Made by a program: the position numbers and the translations under genes. Shown piece by piece: positions 3,386 through 42,948 of a DNA stretch of 64,000 nt. Origin of the DNA: an uncultured virus (IMG/VR IMGVR_UViG_3300000116_000008) (lineage: Duplodnaviria > Heunggongvirae > Uroviricota > Caudoviricetes); IMG/VR virus record IMGVR_UViG_3300000116_000008; one strand, written 5' to 3'. Under the pieces are notes generated by a model. The model saw only the letters and a program-made list of their open reading frames with translations, was not told the DNA's origin and did no database searches. The first letter of the stretch is position 1, and each line of letters starts with the position of its first letter.

Positions 3386-4756
3386 TTATCGTTTTTCACT
3401 TAGATACTCTTTTAATGTTCCGCCTTCAATTGGTTTATCAAGATAGTCTTTTCCTAAAATCCAAATATCAGAATTTTTACTATTTATTTGATCTAGCCAT
3501 ACATTATAGCAATCTTTTACACCCTGTAAACCTCTTACATATTGGGCATTAACTGTATGAAACGCATTACTCCACCATATGACACTATCAGGATCATTAG
3601 TTATTTTATTTGTTACTTTTTCGGGGTTCTCACAAATGTCTACATGAACATATGAGTGTTTCAATTGCTTATATCTTTCCCAATGATCTTTTATTACTTT
3701 CTCTGAACCCCAATACCCTATTTCTCTTTGCCACAAGTCATCTCTAGTTAATCGCTCAGTTTCTACACCACCTGTTTCACTGAATTGATACTTTGCTAGT
3801 GCCCACTTAATAAAACTAGGATAATCCTCACCATCCCAATACGTGAGTAGTAACTTTTTAAACGCTAAAGAAGGCTTACTATAATCGTAATAAACTATTT
3901 CAGTATCATCATAAAAACCAAAATGATGTAGTATCATGTTTGGTTTAAAACTTGCAGCAACACTGTATAGTTTTTTAATAGGCTTTTCAAGCTTAACATA
4001 CTTTAAATCAAGATAGTTTTCTGTATTCCAAAGAAAAACACATGTAGGAGCATACTCAACTATGTTCTGTATCCAATTTAGCTGTAAAGCTAATTCTTCC
4101 GCACTTTGTGACGGATAAATATATTGTTTTGATTCTCTTATCTTTGGGTGAAAATTGTACACAGTTAAATCGTTTTCTAAACTAACATTAATAAAATTCC
4201 AACCATCTACTAATGGTGTACAAACTGTAAGTTCCTCAGTAGGTCTCAAAGATAAAGGAGTATAATCGTCATGTATGTCTTTAGAATGTCTGTTAGCTTT
4301 TACCACGTTTTCTTCTTTAGTAGCTGATTTATTACCAAACACAGGTTTATCAAATTTTCTATAATAATCTAAATTAACTAACATACATTGTTTATGAAGT
4401 CCGTAGTATCCTATTTCGCCTTTGGGGTTATTCTTATTAGGTTTATTTTTATCCATAATATGCCCTGTGACAAAAAAGTTCTGCTTTTCTATCCATTTTT
4501 CAATATGCCTAAAGAACGCAGCTTCTTGAATTATATGACCTGTAGCTTGTACTATACAATACTTTACGTCATGCTCTAGTGCTTTATCTAAAACTTCGTT
4601 AACAGAGTTTGCAGTTATAATTGGTCCAAAGTATTTAAACCTAGTAAAAAATTCTGTTAATTCTTTATATTTTTGAGTGTTAGGAATATGCGTAGAAAAA
4701 GTTGTATCATTATAGATACCTACCACATAATCTTTATTTAACCCCATTTTTCTCAT
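3386..4756 (-). CDS. Hypothetical protein (456 aa), possibly GT-A-like
   Basis: Long coupled ORF between two oxygenases; family not recognised. Confidence 0.5.
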   Translation of the reverse strand: MRKMGLNKDYVVGIYNDTTFSTHIPNTQKYKELTEFFTRFKYFGPIITANSVNEVLDKALEHDVKYCIVQATGHIIQEAAFFRHIEKWIEKQNFFVTGHIMDKNKPNKNNPKGEIGYYGLHKQCMLVNLDYYRKFDKPVFGNKSATKEENVVKANRHSKDIHDDYTPLSLRPTEELTVCTPLVDGWNFINVSLENDLTVYNFHPKIRESKQYIYPSQSAEELALQLNWIQNIVEYAPTCVFLWNTENYLDLKYVKLEKPIKKLYSVAASFKPNMILHHFGFYDDTEIVYYDYSKPSLAFKKLLLTYWDGEDYPSFIKWALAKYQFSETGGVETERLTRDDLWQREIGYWGSEKVIKDHWERYKQLKHSYVHVDICENPEKVTNKITNDPDSVIWWSNAFHTVNAQYVRGLQGVKDCYNVWLDQINSKNSDIWILGKDYLDKPIEGGTLKEYLSEKR

Positions 4757-5590: not shown

Positions 5591-6108
5591 TAGCTATAGT
5601 TATCTAATAGACTTTCATCTACTGCAAAACTTGTCCCGCACCCGCAACTTGCTTTGGCACTAGGATTTTTTACAACTAACATTTTATTCATCATATGATC
5701 TTGTAAATCTACTTCAGATCCATATAAATACTTAACACTTTCGCTATCTATTAAAGCTGGGGGATTATTGGAGAACTGAATATCATTATCTGCTATTTGC
5801 GTATCAATATCTAGCAAATAATTAAACCCTGAGCAGCCACCTCCTGTAACTCCAAATCTAAAATATTCTCCAGGCTTAAGTGTTTCTGAAATATAAATTT
5901 GTGCTTTAGGAGTAATAGTAGGTAAATCTCCTACAAACTTATCATCAATTGTTGGCGCAAATCCATGAAAATCTCTTAATATTTTGTCATCAAGACTTTC
6001 TTTTTTCATTGCTTCATAAACACTAGGTTTAGTGTCAAACTCATCAAACCAATCATCTAGCTCTTGTTGTGCTTTTTCTTTGTCCGATTTCATTAATAAC
6101 TCCTTCAT
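5590..6108 (-). CDS. HesB/IscA/SufA A-type Fe-S cluster carrier with N-terminal extension (start uncertain)
   Basis: GGGCSG and NP.AKASCGCGTSF motifs. Confidence 0.88.
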   Translation of the reverse strand: MKELLMKSDKEKAQQELDDWFDEFDTKPSVYEAMKKESLDDKILRDFHGFAPTIDDKFVGDLPTITPKAQIYISETLKPGEYFRFGVTGGGCSGFNYLLDIDTQIADNDIQFSNNPPALIDSESVKYLYGSEVDLQDHMMNKMLVVKNPSAKASCGCGTSFAVDESLLDNYS

Positions 6109-8064: not shown

Positions 8065-8852
8065 GTATTCGCTTTCGGTTTAACTGTTGGAGCAATAGGC
8101 TTTGTTGCAAAAGGTTTTGGAGTTATAGTTGGCTTTACTATAAGTTTCTTCTTAAAACCTATCATAGCAATTCCACTAAAATACTTATATGAATCACTCA
8201 TACTATTAGATACTCTATATTCTTTAAATCTTTCTTCTACTTTGTCCGCATATTTTATGAGAGCTTTATTTAACAGTTCTGCATATTCATGATTAGACTG
8301 CTGAGTAAATACAACTACACTTTCTGTTGCTAAAGAAGGAAGTACTAGTGTGAAAAAATCATCATATACTTTTTCGCTTACTGGCGATACGTCAAAATGT
8401 ACGACATCAAATTTAGGTTGTTTAGCCCAATCAACATCTTCAAAAGGCTTTTCAATTAATGTTAAGTTTTTTACGTCGAGTCTATCTTTTTCATGCCTAT
8501 AAATATTTAAGTTAGCCTCTAATTGAGATTTCATATTATCCCAAATAAAGCCTTCAGGTGCCCACTTTGGTGACTCTCTATCATCGTATAAATAGTGTTC
8601 TACTCCTACTGCTTTTAGAGTTGGATTATCCAGCATTCCAGATATAAGAGTTGAGCCTTTATAAACTCCTATTTCTAAGAAATTTATATTACTACTAGAA
8701 CATAGATTACTAATTAGTACTCTTTGCCTGATAGTTGATAAGCCGAAAATCATATTTCTCTCTCTATCTGTTGGTTTTCCTCTTTCATTGTCTGCATTCT
8801 GTAATGCTTCCATGCAAAAAGAATGCGATACTTTTTTGTTACTGCCTATCAT
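8061..8852 (-). CDS. Class I SAM methyltransferase (Methyltransf_24-like)
   Basis: FLEIGVYKGST, FDVVHFD. Confidence 0.72.
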   Translation of the reverse strand: MIGSNKKVSHSFCMEALQNADNERGKPTDRERNMIFGLSTIRQRVLISNLCSSSNINFLEIGVYKGSTLISGMLDNPTLKAVGVEHYLYDDRESPKWAPEGFIWDNMKSQLEANLNIYRHEKDRLDVKNLTLIEKPFEDVDWAKQPKFDVVHFDVSPVSEKVYDDFFTLVLPSLATESVVVFTQQSNHEYAELLNKALIKYADKVEERFKEYRVSNSMSDSYKYFSGIAMIGFKKKLIVKPTITPKPFATKPIAPTVKPKANT

Positions 8853-9066
8853 CTTTTTTCCTCTCTATAATAAGTCTGTCTATGAAATAAAATGGTATAT
8901 ACATTGTTAAAAGTATTATTAAAAATACTATCATTGGTAAAATGAATAACAATATACTACTAAGTAGCCAAAACATAATAGTAGCAGTTAAAATAGGACC
9001 TGCGCTACTTTTTTGTTTATATATCATTTTTGTAAGTTCACTCTTTGTTATAAACATTTTATCCAT
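8839..9066 (-). CDS. Small membrane protein
   Basis: Long hydrophobic segment; coupled ORF. Confidence 0.55.
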   Translation of the reverse strand: MDKMFITKSELTKMIYKQKSSAGPILTATIMFWLLSSILLFILPMIVFLIILLTMYIPFYFIDRLIIERKKDDRQ

Positions 9067-9793
9067 TTTTGATTACTCTGTCCAGCGTTTTGTAAAATTT
9101 TGAATTTGCCCATTTCGTATGGAGTCTTTTCATGTTCCTTGTTTCCATGAGAAGTTTGTTTTCATCCTTTAATCGTTTATTATCTCTTGATTCGTGGTGA
9201 TATAGTCTAACTGGGATATTATAAATTATTTGATCCTGTTCTCTTGCTTGTAAACAATAATCAACATCTCTATTATATGTCCACTCGTAGCTTGCATCAA
9301 AATCGCCAACGCTATCAATAAACGACCTTCTCAAATAACAACCACCAAAGGTAGTCCACGCTACTTCTCTAACATTATTGTATTGACCGGTATCTGTTTC
9401 TAGTTCCTTAAATTTAGATTCATTCTCCAAAACAAGCCCACTACCAAAATGATCTGGTCTATTATTGGTAAATTTTCCTCCAGCACATTGTACATAGTAC
9501 TGGTCTTTATCATTTTTAGCGGGATAAAGTAAAAGACACCCAAACATGCCTGCTTCTGGATGTTTTTGAACGTACTCTAATACTTCATCAAACCATCCGT
9601 CATGATGAGGGCTCATATCTGCATGAAGTATAAATATATCATCATTAGGAAACTGTTTCCACATTTTTTGAAACATCAAATCTGAGCCTATACCTGCAGT
9701 ATCTTGTTCATAATGCGCATCTAAATACCAAAACATATCTTTATGATCAATTATTTCTTGTTCATAAACATAGGGTACAATTACTTTAGCCAT
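9059..9793 (-). CDS. Glycosyltransferase family 2
   Basis: ILHAD, GGCYLRR...DVDYCLQARE...HHES. Confidence 0.8.
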   Translation of the reverse strand: MAKVIVPYVYEQEIIDHKDMFWYLDAHYEQDTAGIGSDLMFQKMWKQFPNDDIFILHADMSPHHDGWFDEVLEYVQKHPEAGMFGCLLLYPAKNDKDQYYVQCAGGKFTNNRPDHFGSGLVLENESKFKELETDTGQYNNVREVAWTTFGGCYLRRSFIDSVGDFDASYEWTYNRDVDYCLQAREQDQIIYNIPVRLYHHESRDNKRLKDENKLLMETRNMKRLHTKWANSKFYKTLDRVIKNG

Positions 9794-9965
9794 TTAATTT
9801 TCCTTCAATATCTTTCATACGCGCACCTACCCATTTAAGTATTATTTCACGTTCTGTACTTGTTATACCCCAACGTTCTTCAAAGTCTGTAACATTATTG
9901 AGNGTTGCTTCTTCATATCTTAAGGCATTATAAAGTGCTAGTTCAACGCTGTCTGGTTTTGTCAT
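9786..9965 (-). CDS. Small hypothetical protein (59 aa), missing from the ORF track; contains an N at 9903
   Basis: Hand translation MTKPDSVELALYNALRYEEATLNNV...EGKLNG; overlaps both neighbours. Confidence 0.55.
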   Translation of the reverse strand: MTKPDSVELALYNALRYEEAXLNNVTDFEERWGITSTEREIILKWVGARMKDIEGKLNG

Positions 9966-10966
9966 ATTAGTCTATCTGTCCAAGTTTTAGGGGTTTTATC
10001 TGTAATCAGTTCTAAAGGTAAATGATATTCAAATTCTTTAACTTGTGGTCTTATCCATGCAACCATTTCTTTTAATGTTTGATCTACTGATATTGTAGCA
10101 TTGTAATTCCACTCATCTCTCACTTTTTGGCTTGAACAAAAAGCATTTTTTACTTCTGCTGGTCTATCGGGAAAATGTTGAAGATTAGGATATACTTCAC
10201 AAAAGTGCCCAACTTTATAAGCTAACTCTTTAATTGATATTTCATTATCATCAGGACCAATGTTATACACTTGGCCACAAAGATCTGTTCGTGAACTCTC
10301 CATCATTCTATAAATTGCTTTTATACAATCTAAAACATTAGAAAATGATCTTTTTTGATCTCCCTCGCCATATACAATGATTGGTTTATGTTGCAAACAT
10401 CTATTTATCATTATTCCAACAACATTTCTGAAAGGATCAAAATATCTTTGACCGACCCCTACAACATTATGAGGAACTACTGTTAAGTAGTTTAAACCAT
10501 GTAGCTTACTTAATATCTGTAAATGTTGTTCTGCATTTACTTTTGCTAACCCATAAGGATCTACAGGTGCTGGTTGCATATTTTCTGTAAAAGGAGGTGT
10601 TTGTGCCCCATATCTAGCCATAGAGCTACAATTAATAAATAGTCTAATCTTATTGTGAATTGCTGCTGTTGCAGCTGCAATCGTACCTGATACAATACTT
10701 GTAGCAGTAACCATTGGAGAAAAAACACTTAATCCTTCATACGGAAGTGCTGCTGTGTGAAATACTACTTCACAACCCTTCATTGACTCTTTCAATAGCT
10801 CTATGTCTAATATATCGCCTTTTATATACGTTGCAAGTTCAGGTACGTTACCCTCAACACCACCAATCATGTTATCTATACCAACAACTTCATTGCCTTG
10901 ATTAATAAGGAATCTAGCCATAGTGCTACCTAGTAGCCCACTAATTCCTGTGATAAATATTTTCAT
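9962..10966 (-). CDS. NAD-dependent nucleotide-sugar epimerase/dehydratase
   Basis: GISGLLG Rossmann motif, YGLAK. Confidence 0.9.
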   Translation of the reverse strand: MKIFITGISGLLGSTMARFLINQGNEVVGIDNMIGGVEGNVPELATYIKGDILDIELLKESMKGCEVVFHTAALPYEGLSVFSPMVTATSIVSGTIAAATAAIHNKIRLFINCSSMARYGAQTPPFTENMQPAPVDPYGLAKVNAEQHLQILSKLHGLNYLTVVPHNVVGVGQRYFDPFRNVVGIMINRCLQHKPIIVYGEGDQKRSFSNVLDCIKAIYRMMESSRTDLCGQVYNIGPDDNEISIKELAYKVGHFCEVYPNLQHFPDRPAEVKNAFCSSQKVRDEWNYNATISVDQTLKEMVAWIRPQVKEFEYHLPLELITDKTPKTWTDRLI

Positions 10967-11598
10967 TATTTTACTATTCCTGTTACGGTTAAGGTGTATT
11001 TTGGGTTAATACCACAGTTTCCACTAAGATGAAAAATGTTTTGAGGAATCTCTATAGTATATCCTGGTTCCCAATGATGAATCATGTTATCATGAAGTTG
11101 AAGAAAATGTCCCCAATCCCAGGGACTAACTGCAACAAAATAACGTTTAGCTACACCCTCTGGAAATCTCAACCTAAAAGACCCAAACGCGTCAGTATGA
11201 AGCGGGATACCGTGTCCAGGATCATAGCGTAAAAGTCTTACTGCGCTTTTATCTTTTATAAGGTTAATTGAATCAAAAAACTCATCGCCTAGCATTTCTT
11301 TGAGTTTTAAGTCATCTTCAGGCTCACAACCCCAGTTTTTTTCCATGGAGTTGCTTTCATTATACCCTGTATGCATTAGCAAAACTGCTTGTTTCATATT
11401 ATCAGGAGTAGTAAAAGGTCTTGGATTATAATATTTATGTAAAGCCTTATCAATATTATCAGTTGACCAGTTAATTATGTCTTTATAGGGGATATCTAAT
11501 TTCAGTTCTAAGGGGGAAATTTCAAAGTGAGTATCTAAACTAACATTCTTTTCATCTAAATACTGTTGATAGTAGTCTTCTCTGGTGTATGCATTCAT
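10966..11598 (-). CDS. 2OG-Fe(II) oxygenase-like protein
   Basis: PGHGIPLHTD...FHLSGN. Confidence 0.7.
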   Translation of the reverse strand: MNAYTREDYYQQYLDEKNVSLDTHFEISPLELKLDIPYKDIINWSTDNIDKALHKYYNPRPFTTPDNMKQAVLLMHTGYNESNSMEKNWGCEPEDDLKLKEMLGDEFFDSINLIKDKSAVRLLRYDPGHGIPLHTDAFGSFRLRFPEGVAKRYFVAVSPWDWGHFLQLHDNMIHHWEPGYTIEIPQNIFHLSGNCGINPKYTLTVTGIVK

Positions 11599-18956: not shown

Positions 18957-19188
18957 CTTTTATTGTGCCATCTTCGTATGCGGCATCCCATAAATTTCTA
19001 TTAAGTCTTACTCTCTTATCATTAACATCTACGTAATCTGTTTCTAGTTCTTTTTTTACTTCTTCAACTCTATGTTGCAGCCAACTGATAGATGTATGTA
19101 TATGACCGGTATCATGAGGTTGTAACCTACTTTTTGCTACTGCAATTTCATCCATTAACATTATAAGTTTATCGGTATTTTTTATCAT
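18949..19188 (-). CDS. Conserved phage hypothetical protein
   Basis: LQPHDTGHIHTSISWL; coupled ORF. Confidence 0.6.
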   Translation of the reverse strand: MIKNTDKLIMLMDEIAVAKSRLQPHDTGHIHTSISWLQHRVEEVKKELETDYVDVNDKRVRLNRNLWDAAYEDGTIKGV

Positions 19189-20213
19189 TTTTCTTCTCCA
19201 AAAATTGTGTTGTGTGTGTTATTAACTCTTATAAAAGTGGCACACTTTGATAAAGATTTTAGCCTCTTTGCACCTACGTAAGTACAGGCAGATCTAATAC
19301 CACTTAGTATATCTATTAAGGTATTATTAACAGCACCTTTATAGGGTACTTCAACTGTTTTACCTTCTACCCCTCTATAATCTTTAGTAGGAACATTGTG
19401 TCTGCTCATTGCAGATTCAGAAGACATTCCATAAAATCTCATTTTCCCTTCAACAATTTCGCCATCACACTCATCATGCCCAGCTAAAATTCCTCCGATC
19501 ATTACGAAATCAGCTCCTGCAGCAAATGCCTTTACAATATCTCCTGAGTTATTACACCCTCCATCCGCAATAATATGAGCATTAAGCCCGTGTGCTGCAT
19601 CTGCGCATTCCATTACTGCACTTAGTTGGGGATATCCTACTCCAGTTTTTATTCTTGTAGTACAAACAGAGCCAGGTCCTACACCGACTTTTATAATATC
19701 AGCTCCTGCTAAAATTAATTCTTGTGCTATGTCCGCGGTCACAACATTACCAGCAACAATAATTGCATCTGGCAATCTCATTCGCATATCTTTGATTGCT
19801 TCAATTACAGAAATAGTATAACCGTTAGCAACATCAATTCCAACCATATCCCACTTTAAGTGATTTGTTACCATATGTCCTACATCATCAATACCACCCA
19901 TCATACATACATTTTTACCTAGCATCTTATTATTAGTTGTACCGATTCTCCACCAAGTAGCATCTTTCTTCATAAAATGCCTTGCCGGACACGTAATCAT
20001 ACCGTGTTCTAACATTTTTTTATGCATTTCAGGCGTACCTACAGTATCCATATTAGATGCCATAATAGGAACTCCAGTCCATTCCATTTTACTATGTTTA
20101 AATTTAAATGTTCGGGTAATATCAACATCATAACGGGATGTTAGTGTTGATCGCTTAGGTCTCAGAAGAACATCTGAATAATCTAACTTAATATCGTCTT
20201 CGATTCTCATCAT
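19185..20213 (-). CDS. guaC: GMP reductase
   Basis: [54 protein letters not shown]. Confidence 0.95.
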
Positions 20214-25944: not shown

Positions 25945-25997
25945 TTGACATTGACTTAGCTTTTTGTTATTCTATTTGAAATGTGAAAAGCTAAGTC
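25945..25997 (+). promoter_or_regulatory. Sigma70 promoter of the synthetase-tRNA unit, bracketed by a 12-bp inverted repeat
   Basis: TTGACA-17-TATTCT; GACTTAGCTTTT (25953-25964) and AAAAGCTAAGTC (25986-25997). Confidence 0.65.
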
Positions 25998-26035: not shown

Positions 26036-26884
26036 ATGACTCAATTAATAGACCCGAATAAATTTACAGAAACAGTTGGCCTTTTAAGGTCATTTTTTTT
26101 GGAAAAAGGATTCCTTGAAGTACATACTCAAAATAGACTTTCTATCTTAGCAGCATGTGAAGATCCCTTTAACGTAGCAACATATAATTATGCAAGTCAA
26201 GTTTGGCCACTACCTCAAACTGGACAAATGTGGTTAGAGCATGAGCTCTTAAGTCGGCCCTCTAGTAAGGGCTTTTTTTGTGTCTCCACTTCGTACAGAC
26301 AAGAACCAAATGCAATACCAGGTAGACACGACATAATATTTCCAATGTTTGAATTTGAGATGCCAGGTAACGTAGACGATCTAAAAGCAATGGAGTATGA
26401 ACTATGTGATTACTTAGGCTTTGGAAAACTTACAGAAAAGACATATGCTGAATGGCAACAACATTTTGGTTTAAGTGCTGACGTAGAAATGGAAGCAGAA
26501 CACGAACTAAAGATGGAAGCAGAATTTGGTCAAACTATTATCACAAACTTTCCTGAACTAACAAGCCCTTTCTGGAACATGGCAAGAAATGATGACGGCA
26601 ATACTGCTAAAAAGATGGATGTTATCTTAGGTGGTATGGAAACTATTGGATCAGCAGAACGTTCATGTGATGTTGATATGATGAGAGATACGTTTCATAG
26701 TATTGTAGATGGAGAGTATAGTGAATTACTATACAAATTATTCGGCAAAGAACGTGTAGAAGCAGAACTAGAGAATTTTTTAGAGTTTGATTTCTTTCAA
26801 AGAGTAGGTGGTGGAATAGGTATTACACGTATGATTCCTGCGCTGGAAAAGATTAACAAGATTAATACCCTTAATCTAGGGTAA
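26036..26884 (+). CDS. Class IIb (Asn/Asp) aminoacyl-tRNA synthetase catalytic core lacking the anticodon-binding domain (AsnRS2/asparagine synthetase-like)
   Basis: Motif 1 LRSFFLEKGFLEVHT, motif 2 SYRQE...RH..IFPMFEFE, ETIGSAER, motif 3 GGGIGITRM; only 282 aa. Confidence 0.88.
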   Translation: MTQLIDPNKFTETVGLLRSFFLEKGFLEVHTQNRLSILAACEDPFNVATYNYASQVWPLPQTGQMWLEHELLSRPSSKGFFCVSTSYRQEPNAIPGRHDIIFPMFEFEMPGNVDDLKAMEYELCDYLGFGKLTEKTYAEWQQHFGLSADVEMEAEHELKMEAEFGQTIITNFPELTSPFWNMARNDDGNTAKKMDVILGGMETIGSAERSCDVDMMRDTFHSIVDGEYSELLYKLFGKERVEAELENFLEFDFFQRVGGGIGITRMIPALEKINKINTLNLG

Positions 26885-26891
26885 TGAATAC

Positions 26892-26990
26892 TCTGGGATG
26901 GTGAAACGGTAGACACGCACGATTGTTTCTCGTGTGATAGATGACGGCAAATTATTTATCGTGGAGGTTCGAATCCTTCTCCCAGAGCCA
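26892..26990 (+). tRNA. Non-canonical tRNA-Asn (GTT) with a long variable arm
   Basis: Acceptor TCTGGGA/TCCCAGA, G73, CCA; D arm GTG..GGTAGA..CAC; anticodon stem CACGA/TCGTG, loop TTGTTTC; 28-nt variable region; T arm GGAGG-TTCGAAT-CCTTC. Confidence 0.88.
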
Positions 26991-27621
26991 ACATAATTAA
27001 ATCACTTAATTTTTGATGACTTTTAGCACCTGCATGAGAGTTATCAGGTGCAAAATCTTTATGTTTTTCTAAGTCTAAATGAAACTTAATGTAATCTTCA
27101 GTTAATTCTTCTAATTGTGGCTGTAAATGAGGAAAACAACAGTGATGAATAGTTTTTATTCCTTTTGTACTTATTATTTGTTTTGCTACTGCTCCGCTCC
27201 ACATTCTTTTTACTACCTCTTCTTCAGAAAAATATAGCATTCCTGCAGCGTGCCAAGCTGCTCTATGCTCTTTTGTATTCTTACGTTTATTATCCAATAT
27301 TTGTTCCGATAATGTCCAATTTCTATAATATTTTTCATTCTGTAGCACATGATTTGCTACTATAAATCCCTGCCACTGATTATTTCTAAAATCCCACACT
27401 TGCCACCGATATTCATTCGTGTGACCGATAAGTATTAAATCAGGTTTTAACTTGACAGCTTCTTCAACTTGTGCTGTAATAAGATATTCAGAAGCGCCAC
27501 TTTGAGCTAGGTTCTTTAAATCAGCTTTAAACTTATTTTGTACTAAATAGGGGTAACACTGCTTTTGATCAGAGAGTCCTTCTCCCTGAGTAAAACTATC
27601 GCCACAGGAAACTATTAACAT
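26956..27621 (-). CDS. SGNH/GDSL hydrolase-like protein
   Basis: CGDSFTQG, NLAQSGAS, DNSH. Confidence 0.8.
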   Translation of the reverse strand: MLIVSCGDSFTQGEGLSDQKQCYPYLVQNKFKADLKNLAQSGASEYLITAQVEEAVKLKPDLILIGHTNEYRWQVWDFRNNQWQGFIVANHVLQNEKYYRNWTLSEQILDNKRKNTKEHRAAWHAAGMLYFSEEEVVKRMWSGAVAKQIISTKGIKTIHHCCFPHLQPQLEELTEDYIKFHLDLEKHKDFAPDNSHAGAKSHQKLSDLIMLALGEGFEPPR

Positions 27622-30079: not shown

Positions 30080-30731
30080 TGTTGAAACTGAAACTCTTAA
30101 GTCTGGCAGAACTTATTTTACCCCTGACGGTGCTTATCCTTCTATTACTACTATATTAGGAAAAACAGCTGATAATACCTGGCTCCAAAAATGGATAGAA
30201 CGGGTAGGAGAAGAAGAAGCCGCACGAGTGTCTAAAGAAGCTACAGATAGAGGAACATTAGTACATGAATTTGCAGAGAGACATTTTAATGGGGAATCTA
30301 TTACAGATGAACTAAAGGTTCAAACTTTAGATGTTAGACAAATGAGTCATGATTTAATTAAAATGACTGAATCAGGAGTAGAAGAGGTATGGGGACAAGA
30401 ACAAGTTCTTTGGAGTAATAAATACAAATACGCTGGTAGAACTGACATGGTAGGTATCTGGAAAGGTAAACCTACTATAATTGATTTTAAAACAAGTAAG
30501 AAGAAAAAATATGTTAAACAAATTACTGATTATTTTATTCAGTGCTGTGCTTACGCTGTTGCTCACAACGAGCTGTACGGTACAGGTATCAGAAACATGG
30601 CAGTGCTCATTACAGTCGATGGCGGAGAACCCCAAATCTTTGAACGTGACGCCGTGCCTTATCTTCCACTTTTAAAGAATAGGAGAATGACGTTTGACAA
30701 ACTGCAAGCAGCTAAAACTACCTCTTCTTGA
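30057..30731 (+). CDS. PD-(D/E)XK exonuclease (Cas4-like phage exonuclease)
   Basis: YPSITTIL, RGTLVH, YAGRTD..IIDFKTS..Q..AYA. Confidence 0.88.
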   Translation: MKYNYLTDVETETLKSGRTYFTPDGAYPSITTILGKTADNTWLQKWIERVGEEEAARVSKEATDRGTLVHEFAERHFNGESITDELKVQTLDVRQMSHDLIKMTESGVEEVWGQEQVLWSNKYKYAGRTDMVGIWKGKPTIIDFKTSKKKKYVKQITDYFIQCCAYAVAHNELYGTGIRNMAVLITVDGGEPQIFERDAVPYLPLLKNRRMTFDKLQAAKTTSS

Positions 30732-31206
30732 AGGTGTTAATATTCACAAATTAATACACTTTTTTAAATTAGGTAAGCATCTTTTTACTGATCGATATTC
30801 AGAGTCTCCTCATTGGAAATCTTTTGACTTAATTAGTAACACAGGCTACTCGCCTATGTTTAAACATTTTCCTGAAATAGTAAAATGGTCAGAAATGTTA
30901 CAAAAAAAGAAATTCATTTCAAAAATACTAACACTTTACATATCAGTATTAGCACCCCGACAACAGATACCTTGGCATGTTGATATGGATAAACTAGGAT
31001 TTAATAAAGCATTTATTACGGCTTTACACATTGATGATAGCTTTATCGAGTTTAAAGATGATAAAAAATATTTTTATAAAAAAGGCTATAGCTATGCATT
31101 ACAAACAGGAATTGAGCATAGAATTATAAATATGAGTGATGATTATAGAATTACACTGTGTACGTCCCCAACAAAGGAGTTAAATAATGATACAATGGTT
31201 GCATGA
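30694..31206 (+). CDS. 2OG-Fe(II) oxygenase, Asp/Asn beta-hydroxylase-like
   Basis: IPWHVD...EHRIINMSDDYRI. Confidence 0.72.
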   Translation: MTNCKQLKLPLLEGVNIHKLIHFFKLGKHLFTDRYSESPHWKSFDLISNTGYSPMFKHFPEIVKWSEMLQKKKFISKILTLYISVLAPRQQIPWHVDMDKLGFNKAFITALHIDDSFIEFKDDKKYFYKKGYSYALQTGIEHRIINMSDDYRITLCTSPTKELNNDTMVA

Positions 31207-33495: not shown

Positions 33496-34563
33496 ATGAA
33501 ACTACTAAAACTATTGATAGTTGCACTATCAGTTATGTTTTTCAGTGTTGCACATGCTGAAAATAAGACAAAAGTCGGATTTATTTATGTTGGCCCAACT
33601 GGCGACCATGGATGGACTTATAGACACGATATAGGAAGACAAGATGTTGAAAAGCATTTTGGAGACAAAGTTGAAACCACTTACATTGAAAGTGTAAAGT
33701 ATGGACCTGACGCAGAACGTGCAATCAGAGCTATGGCCAAAGGTGGAGCAGATATTATATTTGCAACAAGTTTTGGTTACATGGAGCCTATGCTTAAAGT
33801 AGCAAAAGAATTTCCAAATGTAAAATTTGAACATGCTACAGGTTATAAGCAATCAGATAACATGGCAAGTTATGGATTGAGATTATACCAAGCCAGACAC
33901 GTACAAGGTGTAATTGCAGGTATGATGACTAAGACTAACAAAATTTGTTACGTTGGTGCATTTCCAATTCCAGAAGTTATTCGTGAAATTAACACGTATT
34001 ACTTAGGTGCTAAGTCGGTTAATCCAGATGTTGATATTGATATCGTATGGGTTAATACATGGTACGATCCAGGTAAAGAAGCACAAGCCGCTAAGGTTAT
34101 GATTGCAGAAGGTTGTGATATGGTTGCTCAGCATACTGATTCACCTGCTCCATTGCAGACTGCAGAAAAAGCAGGCGTACTAGGTTTTGGTCAAGCATCA
34201 AACCAATATAAGTTTGCTCCTAAAGCTCAGTTGACTGCAACTATTGACAACTGGTCACCATACTATATTGAAAAAGTACAAGCAGTAATGGACGGCACTT
34301 GGAAGAGTGGTGATTACTTTGGGCACATGAAAGATGATGTTGTACAGATGGCACCATTTACTAATATGCCAGACGATGTAAAAGCATTTGCACAAAAGAT
34401 TAAAGATGGTATTACCAATGGAAAGTATTTTGCTTTTACTGGTCCTATCAAAGACAACACAGGTAAACTTCAGTTGAAAGACGGAGAGATTGCTAGTGAT
34501 GCACATCTTAATAGTATGATGTACTATGTTGAAGGTATTGACGCTAAAGTGCCTGGTAAATAA
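33496..34563 (+). CDS. BMP-family ABC substrate-binding protein (purine nucleoside-type)
   Basis: Signal peptide; KVGFIYVGP.GDHGW, IFATSFGYM, QHTDSP. Confidence 0.92.
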   Translation: MKLLKLLIVALSVMFFSVAHAENKTKVGFIYVGPTGDHGWTYRHDIGRQDVEKHFGDKVETTYIESVKYGPDAERAIRAMAKGGADIIFATSFGYMEPMLKVAKEFPNVKFEHATGYKQSDNMASYGLRLYQARHVQGVIAGMMTKTNKICYVGAFPIPEVIREINTYYLGAKSVNPDVDIDIVWVNTWYDPGKEAQAAKVMIAEGCDMVAQHTDSPAPLQTAEKAGVLGFGQASNQYKFAPKAQLTATIDNWSPYYIEKVQAVMDGTWKSGDYFGHMKDDVVQMAPFTNMPDDVKAFAQKIKDGITNGKYFAFTGPIKDNTGKLQLKDGEIASDAHLNSMMYYVEGIDAKVPGK

Positions 34564-41842: not shown

Positions 41843-42218
41843 TAGTGTTTATGTTAGATTACAACCCTCTAAAATACATGGTGTAGGTGTTTTTGCCATC
41901 AAAATGATACCTAAAAATTTTACTATATTTAAATCAACCTGTTTATATACTAAAACCCCTATAAGTTCGTTAGACAAATTGTCTGAACCCGAAAAGACCT
42001 ATTATCTTGATTTTTTTGTTCAGGAAGATAACTTTATTTACTTACCCTCTATACCAGTGCAATCTATTGATATTAGTTTTTTTATAAATCATGATTCTAC
42101 TTTTCCAAATGTTAAATATGATTATGAATTAGATAGCTTTGTTACTTTAATGCCTATACCTGTAGGTACTGAAATTGTTTATGACTATTCGAGCGTAGAA
42201 GATGAAATTATACTTTGA
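41826..42218 (+). CDS. SET-domain protein
   Basis: SKIHGVGVFA, FINH...PNV, GTEIVYDY. Confidence 0.85.
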   Translation: MKTTVDSVYVRLQPSKIHGVGVFAIKMIPKNFTIFKSTCLYTKTPISSLDKLSEPEKTYYLDFFVQEDNFIYLPSIPVQSIDISFFINHDSTFPNVKYDYELDSFVTLMPIPVGTEIVYDYSSVEDEIIL

Positions 42219-42948
42219 TAATATTTTTGGACACCAAACAGATGGTGATTTGTTATTCAGTGTTGTGAGCGCTGAGTTCGATCAAAATGAGTGGAATCAC
42301 GCTTTTGAAAATGGTTGGTCGCCTATCGGGATTTGGTATAATAGAGATAAAGATATTCTCTGGTATCAATCAAGGCAAACTAGAATTGATACTAAAATTC
42401 ATTTTCATAGTAGAAAGACTAAACTTTTACTACAAAAAACTACTGTAAATTGGACTATAAGTACTTCACATGGATATGATGAAGAAGTATATGCTTTGTA
42501 TGTTGACTATTGTAACTATAAAAAATTCACAGATATTGCAACGTACGACGAAATAGACATAATATTTAACTATCCTGTTAACCAACGTTTTATAAAGTTT
42601 TATTATGAAGAGAAGTTAATAGCTATAACTAAAATGAGTACTTGGAATAATAGTGTTTACTCTGAGTTTTTTTGGTGGAATTACAATTTACCAGAGTTAT
42701 CTGTCGGAAAGTTATCTGGAGCGATAGAAATAGACATTGCTAAAGAGTCAGGTAATCGTTATTTATATACGGGTCTTGGTTATCATCATCACGGCATATA
42801 TAAGTCTTTAAAAAAAGGATTCGAATGGTGGACAGGTAGAGAGTGGTCTACAGACGTTGAAAAATATAACTACTTGTGTAGAAAAGATGACGAAATTAAA
42901 ACTATAGATGAGCTGTATGAGCATCAGATAAATTATTTTAAGGAATAG
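42202..42948 (+). CDS. Ate/Bpt-like aminoacyl-tRNA-protein transferase (GNAT)
   Basis: AFENGW, EEVYALY..Y, KLIA, LSVGKLS..IEIDIAK..G.RYLY.G..Y...YK match the ATE_C pattern. Confidence 0.68.
   Translation: MKLYFDNIFGHQTDGDLLFSVVSAEFDQNEWNHAFENGWSPIGIWYNRDKDILWYQSRQTRIDTKIHFHSRKTKLLLQKTTVNWTISTSHGYDEEVYALYVDYCNYKKFTDIATYDEIDIIFNYPVNQRFIKFYYEEKLIAITKMSTWNNSVYSEFFWWNYNLPELSVGKLSGAIEIDIAKESGNRYLYTGLGYHHHGIYKSLKKGFEWWTGREWSTDVEKYNYLCRKDDEIKTIDELYEHQINYFKE

Follow-up and report, generated by a model that had tools for sequence, protein, structure and literature searches.

The stretch of DNA analysed here (the window: 64,000 nucleotides (nt) of an uncultured Caudoviricetes virus, IMG/VR record IMGVR_UViG_3300000116_000008) encodes a small enzyme derived from asparaginyl-tRNA synthetase (AsnRS), and directly downstream a tRNA with an asparagine anticodon. 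In phages, the enzyme and the tRNA form a conserved unit. The reading that we favour, with something short of even confidence, is that the locus is a tRNA-linked metabolic module and not a simple private charging pair. More doubtfully, the enzyme family may represent a new pyrimidine route, from activated asparagine and CO2 to dihydroorotate, which in phages would operate on a private tRNA loaded by the host. The parts of the locus are as follows.

26036..26884, plus strand: open reading frame (ORF) of 282 amino acids (aa) with an ATG start, an AsnRS-derived class IIb catalytic core without anticodon-binding domain (ORF call, Pfam, PHROG, structure)
26885..26891, plus strand: 7-nt spacer between the stop codon and the tRNA (from the sequence; mostly 0-40 nt in relatives)
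26892-26990, plus strand: type-II tRNA of 99 nt, with anticodon GUU, U1-A72, G73, an encoded CCA and a variable region of about 28 nt (Rfam and covariance model R1, described below); the captive tRNA

The linkage of the two genes was assessed with R1, which was built from 46 unique copies of the tRNA. The search covered the best 80 of at least 595 IMG/VR relatives, with identities of 80% or more; two of these loci stop at the gene and were not judged. In 75 of the remaining 78 loci the tRNA lies directly downstream (74 full copies and one interrupted by the contig end), and in three it is missing (L050, L079 and L080). The Prochlorococcus myophages P-SSM7, P-SSM2 and P-SSM5 encode enzymes of 64-66% identity, annotated as 'tRNA ligase', and all three carry a tRNA(GUU) of 85-88 nt with a long variable arm within about 10 nt of the enzyme gene. 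The tRNA is likewise found in 4/4 loci of a clade at about 43% identity to the window enzyme, and in six phage-like contigs that were binned into metagenome-assembled genomes. Queries with the distant viral relatives P0160 and P0227 returned no loci. In the reverse test, a D-arm and anticodon pattern identified 80 loci, 69 of which hold an R1 tRNA, the other 11 being chance matches in coding DNA; the enzyme is encoded directly upstream of the tRNA in 69/69. None of the seven window genes that flank the pair recurs beside it in 100 other loci, and the pair therefore moves as a cassette.

Two further observations concern RNA genes at these loci. Permuted (two-piece) genes for transfer-messenger RNA (tmRNA) are present near the pair in L042-L048, L054, L071-L072 and G006 (L326:15983-16398), with tags such as ANANRAPEMALAA and ANDN..ALAA; permuted tmRNAs with tags of the latter type are presumably alphaproteobacterial. 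In AY939844.2 (L002), the tRNA-Asn feature PSSM2_199 is annotated at 5825-5910, about 2 kb off the position 3813-3900 that is given by ARAGORN and Rfam, probably owing to a coordinate slip in the record.

The original prediction described an asparagine anticodon on a non-asparagine body, 7 nt behind the ORF, and both points stand: the last base of the stop codon is 26884 and the first of the tRNA is 26892. The anticodon loop reads UUGUUUC (with U33 and U37 around the GUU anticodon), the D stem has 3 bp, and the D arm is Leu-like, nearly identical to that of a co-resident tRNA-Leu. Outside the family, R1 scores tRNA-Leu genes highest (57-66 bits), with all others, including Tyr and Ser, below 50 bits. 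The window tRNA itself reaches 103 bits against R1, and 45 bits against the Rfam tRNA model (RF00005, gathering threshold 29). ARAGORN miscalls this long copy as Glu(ctc) and calls the shorter relatives Asn(gtt). The fold is backed by compensatory changes in 18/23 pairs of R1, and all four stems covary.

The conservation pattern of the tRNA is uneven. G34 U35 U36, U1-A72 and G73 are unchanged in 46/46 copies, G5-G7 of the acceptor stem are conserved, and C2-G71 is found in 43/46. The variable region measures either 13-17 or 28-32 nt, and CCA is encoded in the window clade and absent from the cyanophage copies. At position 37, 36 copies have U, nine A and one C; at position 33, the counts are 42 for U and two each for C and A. 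Elongator tRNAs are expected to combine U33 with a purine at position 37; of these two features, the window copy has only the first, its position 37 being U. The captive tRNA is relaxed at positions where decoding tRNAs are strict.

The marks that would identify the tRNA to host enzymes are complete. The bacterial tRNA-Asn identity set (G34 U35 U36 and G73, with U1-A72 for the amidotransferase GatCAB) is fully present. In the accessible portion of Giege and Eriani 2023 (PMC9976931), the anticodon and G73 constitute bacterial Asn identity, G73 is an antideterminant against LeuRS and TyrRS and C2-G71 one against SerRS, and aspartylation of yeast tRNA-Asn is blocked by t6A37. Excerpts of two other papers give U1-A72 as the determinant and an enlarged D-loop as the antideterminant for bacterial GatCAB (Bailly et al. 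2006, PMC1635274), and describe the D-loop as being read by GatB (PMC2811023). Judged by its sequence, the captive tRNA thus has all marks for conversion to Asn-tRNA by the host, in addition to marks that should repel the synthetases for type-II tRNAs.

The enzyme is indeed a class IIb core of 282 aa without N-terminal OB-fold, as the original prediction had it. The only Pfam match is PF00152 (class II D/K/N core; E = 5.9e-16), with residues 13-277 on profile positions 28-299 of 308. The OB-fold (PF01336) is absent from the Pfam matches of the ORF, and the protein begins at position 28 of the catalytic-domain profile. Family members that are listed at full length mostly have about 260-300 aa. 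PHROG 29758 (function unknown) matches from end to end (E = 8.2e-129, residues 1-271 on profile positions 1-266 of 267). The NCBIfam matches to AsnRS, non-discriminating AspRS (ND-AspRS), AsnA-type, EpmA and LysRS models are short and weak, and all lie far under the cut-offs. For the AsnRS equivalogs, the scores are 34.5 bits against a cut-off of 342.6 (TIGR00457, asnS) and 32.6 against 414 (NF003037), over about 80 residues each. The AsnA-type models NF005055 (23.6 bits against 389) and NF005053 (11.7 against 322) are also missed, with no match to TIGR00669, as are the EpmA/GenX models TIGR00462 and NF006828 (16 bits against 286.9 and 17.5 against 264).

An AlphaFold model computed from 45 family members has a predicted local distance difference test (pLDDT) score of 95.5. 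It aligns solely with the catalytic domains of AsnRS and AspRS, for example with residues 230-530 of human AsnRS (Z 27.7). Ranked by structural Z score, AsnRS comes first (26-27.7), followed by AspRS (25-26) and then by GenX, archaeal AsnA and LysRS (23-24). AsnRS is also the top match in a profile search of the PDB (E = 8e-15). The family is large, with 683 representatives at E<=0.001 among 1.84 billion proteins, and with over 8,000 clusters of proteins at the 90% identity level. By these sequence comparisons, the enzyme is a member of a distinct family, far from true AsnRS and AspRS, and the database labels 'tRNA ligase' and 'aspartyl/asparaginyl-tRNA synthetase' are probably misleading.

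Motif 2 (R88, E90, R97-H98, F102, E106, E108) and motif 3 (G258..R265) are kept in the 45 family members and align with those of genuine AsnRS and AspRS sequences, and the motif-2 loop has its full length. The pocket motif, QTGQMWLE in the enzyme, QSSQLYLE in AsnRS and QSPQLYKQ in AspRS, is AsnRS-like. The Lys of the AspRS pocket, which we take to be the aspartate-binding residue in assigning roles within this motif, is replaced by Leu as in AsnRS, and a Glu comes next; ..GSAER.. is a further pocket signature of the enzyme. Other features set the family apart. Two basic residues are peculiar to it, namely K193, and R256 at the place of the His in the 'PH.G' of AsnRS and AspRS. The acidic residue that precedes the motif-3 Arg has become T, and there is a 5-residue insert with G226/Y228. 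Judged from the alignment, K193 and R256 might accommodate a further anionic group, for example a carbamate or another carboxylate.

The association with the tRNA does not extend to the whole family. It is missing from a huge-phage clade at 48% identity (0/4 loci linked; two huge uncultured phages and two related contigs), the records of which contain ordinary tRNA-Asn genes of 74-77 nt. When prokaryotes were scanned with one genome per species, 407 relatives were found; among the 74 listed loci on which the cellular count rests (55-60% identity), an R1 tRNA lies beside the gene in 0/74. The cellular hosts belong to Patescibacteria, Weeksellaceae/Moheibacter, Aureispira, Rickettsiales and other Proteobacteria. 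The homologues without tRNA (48-60% identity) share the active-site residues of the window enzyme. In a phylogenetic tree, the family is one group on a very long branch from AsnRS and AspRS. The main tRNA-linked phage clade comprises 66 rows, 62 of them linked, with two apparent losses; linkage is further seen in a small clade and in one isolated row. The cellular clades are separate, and the deep order is not settled by the tree. The expectation that homologues would share the tRNA thus held for phages (75/78, 3/3 and 4/4, and 69/69 in reverse) but not for the huge phages and cells. Homologues without such a tRNA had been named beforehand as one part of the evidence that would refute the pairing, and they were found among the huge-phage and cellular copies.

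At the cellular loci L118, L154, L112, L117 and L130, all from the candidate phyla radiation (CPR), the order SerRS .. Dus - family gene - DnaX is kept, in Patescibacteria without PyrD, PyrF, AsnRS and AsnB. In L168 (Nomurabacteria; 8812-11088), the surroundings differ and may be related to aspartate: behind the family gene lie genes for a Lyase_1 protein of the aspartase/adenylosuccinate-lyase type and for an amidohydrolase.

The relatives point to pyrimidine synthesis. P0124 (661 aa, found on 7 contigs) consists of a DHO_dh domain and a family domain of 54% identity, and P0139 (588 aa) of a family domain and an orotidine 5'-monophosphate decarboxylase domain (OMPdecase, PyrF). In the alphaproteobacterial genome G014, pyrF and pyrD directly adjoin the family gene, and in Aureispira, pyrEF and pyrD are 1-2 kb away from it. 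The gene content of 16 family-bearing cellular genomes was surveyed, with PyrB and PyrC counted above their model cut-offs. PyrB (aspartate carbamoyltransferase) was detected in 0/16 of these genomes and in 14/14 controls. CarB was found in 1/16 and PyrC (of either type) in 1/16, PyrD was strong in 7/16 and PyrF present in 8/16, and six genomes have PyrD and PyrF but no CarB, PyrB or PyrC. In an order-level sample around Moheibacter, 67/81 genomes have PyrB, and the family occurs in the Moheibacter genome G016 alone. Asn-tRNA can be made by a standard route in all 16 family-bearing genomes (AsnRS in five and GatB in 13, the three without GatB all having AsnRS), which therefore do not depend on the family for an AsnRS. 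Five genomes with PyrD but without PyrB already have AsnB.

A tRNA-linked metabolic module, as we favour it, would be a mobile two-part phage cassette, made up of an adenylate-forming enzyme of AsnRS descent and a tRNA dedicated to this enzyme. The product of the family may be a pyrimidine precursor from activated asparagine, most simply dihydroorotate, which is formally asparagine plus CO2 minus water. In the first step, the AsnRS-type core would activate the alpha-carboxyl group of asparagine, as Asn-AMP or as an Asn ester. Carboxylation of the alpha-amine with CO2 would then lead to an N-carboxyanhydride. Finally, the side-chain amide would attack the carbamate carbonyl, so that dihydroorotate is formed and the carboxylate is freed. 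A single enzyme could in this way stand in for CarAB, PyrB and PyrC, which would be consistent with the PyrD and PyrF fusions and with the phyletic pattern.

The aminoacyl ester on a tRNA would be an equivalent activated form, which may give the captive tRNA of the phage cassette the role of a carrier. It could be loaded by the AsnRS of the host, by ND-AspRS and GatCAB, or by the enzyme, and would then be consumed by the enzyme. Loading by host AsnRS or ND-AspRS would explain the invariance of a GUU anticodon that an enzyme without anticodon domain cannot read, and completion of the loading by GatCAB would explain the invariance of U1-A72. As a result, phage nucleotide synthesis would be fed and the regulated first steps of the host bypassed, without draining the translational tRNA-Asn.

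Several points weigh against a metabolic module of this kind. We infer both the dihydroorotate chemistry and the role of the tRNA as a carrier. Class II synthetases approach the tRNA from the side of the variable arm. The long variable arm and the long, Leu-type D-loop may therefore hinder class IIb synthetases and also, going by the available part of the source on D-loop reading, GatB (PMC2811023). U33 is retained in 42/46 copies, which is compatible with decoding. No pyrimidine genes are present among the 101 scanned ORFs of the window, and there is no PyrD in P-SSM2 and P-SSM7. The complete CPR genomes G007 and G008 have the gene, between Dus and DnaX, but lack PyrD, PyrF, AsnRS and AsnB, and a pyrimidine role can therefore not be the whole story. 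Moheibacter G016 has AsnRS and lacks AsnB, AsnA and GatB, a combination that would fit a plain asparagine synthetase equally well. Finally, literature searches on AsnRS and asparagine synthetase of Prochlorococcus and Pelagibacter yielded nothing usable on the Asn-tRNA route of these hosts.

Alternatively, and as the original prediction had suggested, the mini-enzyme could recognise the acceptor stem and the variable arm and charge its own tRNA with asparagine (or aspartate). AAY codons would then be decoded by the private pair, and the phage would be freed from the Asn-tRNA route of the host or from host attack on tRNA-Asn. We regard this as possible, but on balance unlikely. The tight linkage in both directions, the AsnRS-type pocket and the full-length motif-2 loop are what such a pair would be expected to show, and so are the conserved U1-A72, G73 and G5-G7 of the acceptor stem. 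The 7-nt anticodon loop, U33 in 42/46 copies and the invariant GUU meet the demands of decoding, and the antideterminants G73 and C2-G71 would keep LeuRS, TyrRS and SerRS from charging the Leu-type body (PMC9976931, in the portion cited above). In a class-level sample labelled Alphaproteobacteria (the class of G014), 98/101 genomes showed no AsnRS, and hosts of that class would therefore use the indirect route. However, orthologues of 55-60% identity with the same active-site residues do without such a tRNA in genomes that have AsnRS or GatB, and the PyrD and PyrF fusions are not accounted for by a charging pair. A purine at position 37 is found in only 9/46 copies, U33 is missing in four, and a source of free asparagine in the host would be needed. 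Moreover, the tRNA array of one 133-kb phage contig that encodes the pair includes a normal tRNA-Asn (76 nt, A37). The captive tRNA is therefore not needed for decoding there, and this co-residence argues against a simple decoding role for the pair.

It is less likely still that enzyme and tRNA are independent helpers. The enzyme would then be a tRNA-free asparagine synthetase of the AsnA or archaeal kind, working on aspartate, ammonium and ATP, and the tRNA a supplementary tRNA-Asn for decoding that arose from a remoulded tRNA-Leu gene and is charged by host enzymes. The two would be linked only through the Asn-rich, AT-rich proteome of the phage. Size and architecture match archaeal AsnA (PDB 3P8T/3REU, Z 23-24), the weak NCBIfam matches include AsnA-type models, and the anticodon and G73, as read by AsnRS and ND-AspRS, are retained. 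The family could also supply asparagine in G016 and in G018, both of which have AsnRS but neither AsnB nor AsnA. In contrast, co-occurrence in 69/69 and 75/78 loci, at distances of 0-40 nt and among unrelated neighbours, is not predicted for independent helpers, nor is the finding that this type of tRNA is never seen without the enzyme. The CPR carriers of the gene have no AsnRS to make use of free asparagine, the five PyrD-positive genomes without PyrB already have AsnB, and the PyrD and PyrF fusions would be left unexplained.

Finally, the tRNA could be a structural or mobility element (a 3' processing or mRNA stability signal, or a recombination site) with no chemistry in common with the enzyme, as might be suspected from a cassette among unrelated neighbours in different phages and from the statement, in the accessible text of Sullivan et al. 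2010 (PMC3037559), that cyanophage tRNA genes co-occur with non-syntenic regions and may serve recombination; but this is very improbable, since the invariant anticodon, G73 and U1-A72 and the covarying stems across clades of 43-66% identity exceed the needs of processing or attachment, and CCA is encoded in the window clade.

The claim that the pair has its own promoter is plausible only. There is one candidate site:

25945-25973, plus strand: sigma-70-like promoter candidate TTGACA-17-TATTCT (10/12 matches), with TG upstream of the second hexamer, about 60 nt before the ORF

Promoter-like sites in the region are no commoner than in shuffled sequences (5 found, 5.5 expected). The -10 hexamer of this candidate lies between the arms of a perfect 12-bp inverted repeat (GACTTAGCTTTT / AAAAGCTAAGTC; 25951-25997) with a T-run behind it, possibly a terminator belonging to the gene upstream, or else an operator. 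In the leader upstream of the ORF, the Rfam search gave only sub-threshold matches, which we take as chance (preQ1-II, 23.4 bits against 47; SpR14, 28.3 against 50). The plus strand has no terminator-like site in the spacer that precedes the tRNA. Relatives of the ORF and of the tRNA's 3' portion occur on contigs from marine RNA libraries of three studies, some of which run from the end of the ORF into the tRNA. The evidence for expression is weak, as these are contigs and not reads, DNA carry-over is possible, and stretches without coverage are uninformative.

Downstream, a minus-strand ORF (26956-27621, 221 aa) overlaps the tRNA by 35 nt, its final 11 residues being the reverse of the T-arm and acceptor. 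By eye, its N-terminus (...SCGDSFTQGEG...) is SGNH/GDSL-like, and it has no Pfam or PHROG match. It was considered as the 'lipase' that lies downstream of the pair in P-SSM2 and P-SSM5, and rejected as a different protein. Another ORF of the window (42202-42948, plus strand, 248 aa) has an ATE_C domain (arginine-tRNA-protein transferase C-terminus, E = 3e-9) and may be an aminoacyl-tRNA-dependent transferase. It was dropped as a general partner of the pair, being absent from five other pair-bearing records, including the complete P-SSM2 and P-SSM7. The auxiliary gene load of the window is unusually rich for a phage. A long minus-strand block (1-22744) contains sugar-nucleotide and glycosyltransferase genes and two TctA transporter genes. 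The window also has a GMP-reductase/IMPDH-like gene (19185-20213), a gene for a PnrA-like nucleoside-binding protein (33496-34563), and two Asp/Asn beta-hydroxylase-like genes (PF05118; 4734-5369 on the minus strand and 30694-31206 on the plus strand).

A search of the literature, which did not cover subscription journals and supplements, did not turn up any study that deals with the enzyme family, the tRNA or both together. The sole printed mention that was found is a 'tRNA ligase' row (T4-GC 194, for P-SSM2 and P-SSM7) in Table 3 of Sullivan et al. 2010 (PMC3037559), within the accessible part of that paper. If the family does make dihydroorotate or another pyrimidine precursor, it would fill the apparent gap in genomes that have PyrD and PyrF without CarB, PyrB and PyrC, and a new reaction would join the short list of jobs held by synthetase paralogues. 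If the tRNA is a carrier, it would be a tRNA dedicated to nucleotide metabolism, and the pair an auxiliary metabolic module of a new kind, in phages that are abundant in the ocean. If the enzyme instead charges the tRNA, the two would be a natural minimal synthetase/tRNA pair without anticodon reading, of interest to genetic-code engineering.

With respect to its fold, the enzyme is most similar to canonical AsnRS (PDB 8TC8/8H53, 2XTI/2XGT, 1X54, 9SH8), its best structural match (Z 26-27.7 over about 249 residues). Both have motifs 2 and 3 as well as the pocket signatures Q-x-G/S-Q-[LM]-x-L-E and G-S-x-[QE]-R. However, the enzyme has no OB-fold anticodon domain, and the identity is only about 20%. 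Archaeal asparagine synthetase A (AS-AR or 'AsnRS2', PDB 3P8T/3REU/1NNH) and bacterial AsnA share with it a class II core of about 290 aa, the lack of an anticodon domain and descent from AspRS/AsnRS, and the similarity to 3REX/3P8T (Z 23-24) extends over 239 residues. Nevertheless, the profile match to AS-AR has an E value of only 1e-6 with partial coverage, and the enzyme is structurally closer to AsnRS. To our knowledge, AS-AR is neither paired with a tRNA nor fused to pyrimidine enzymes.

EpmA (GenX/PoxA, the LysRS-derived lysyl ligase of EF-P, PDB 3A5Y/3A5Z) is a class IIb core that has also lost its anticodon domain (Z 23.5-23.8), and it acts on a partner of its own, L-shaped and with an acceptor-like arm. 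However, this partner is a protein, EF-P, and not an RNA, and the EpmA pocket is of the Lys type and not of the Asn type. We know of no pathway that combines an AsnRS-like core with a private tRNA.

Precedents for the tRNA come from other systems. Certain staphylococcal tRNA-Gly species are used by Fem transferases to build peptidoglycan bridges. As is proposed for the captive tRNA, they keep the marks for charging, carry changes that make ribosomal use less favourable and feed a non-ribosomal enzyme. They have type-I bodies, whereas the phage tRNA has a type-II, Leu-like body with Asn identity and is physically joined to a synthetase-like gene. An aminoacyl-tRNA is also the activated intermediate when GatCAB amidates Asp-tRNA(Asn), a reaction for which the captive tRNA has the invariant U1-A72, and Glu-tRNA has this role in tetrapyrrole synthesis. 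In contrast to the phage cassette, these pathways draw on ordinary translational tRNAs and involve unrelated enzymes.

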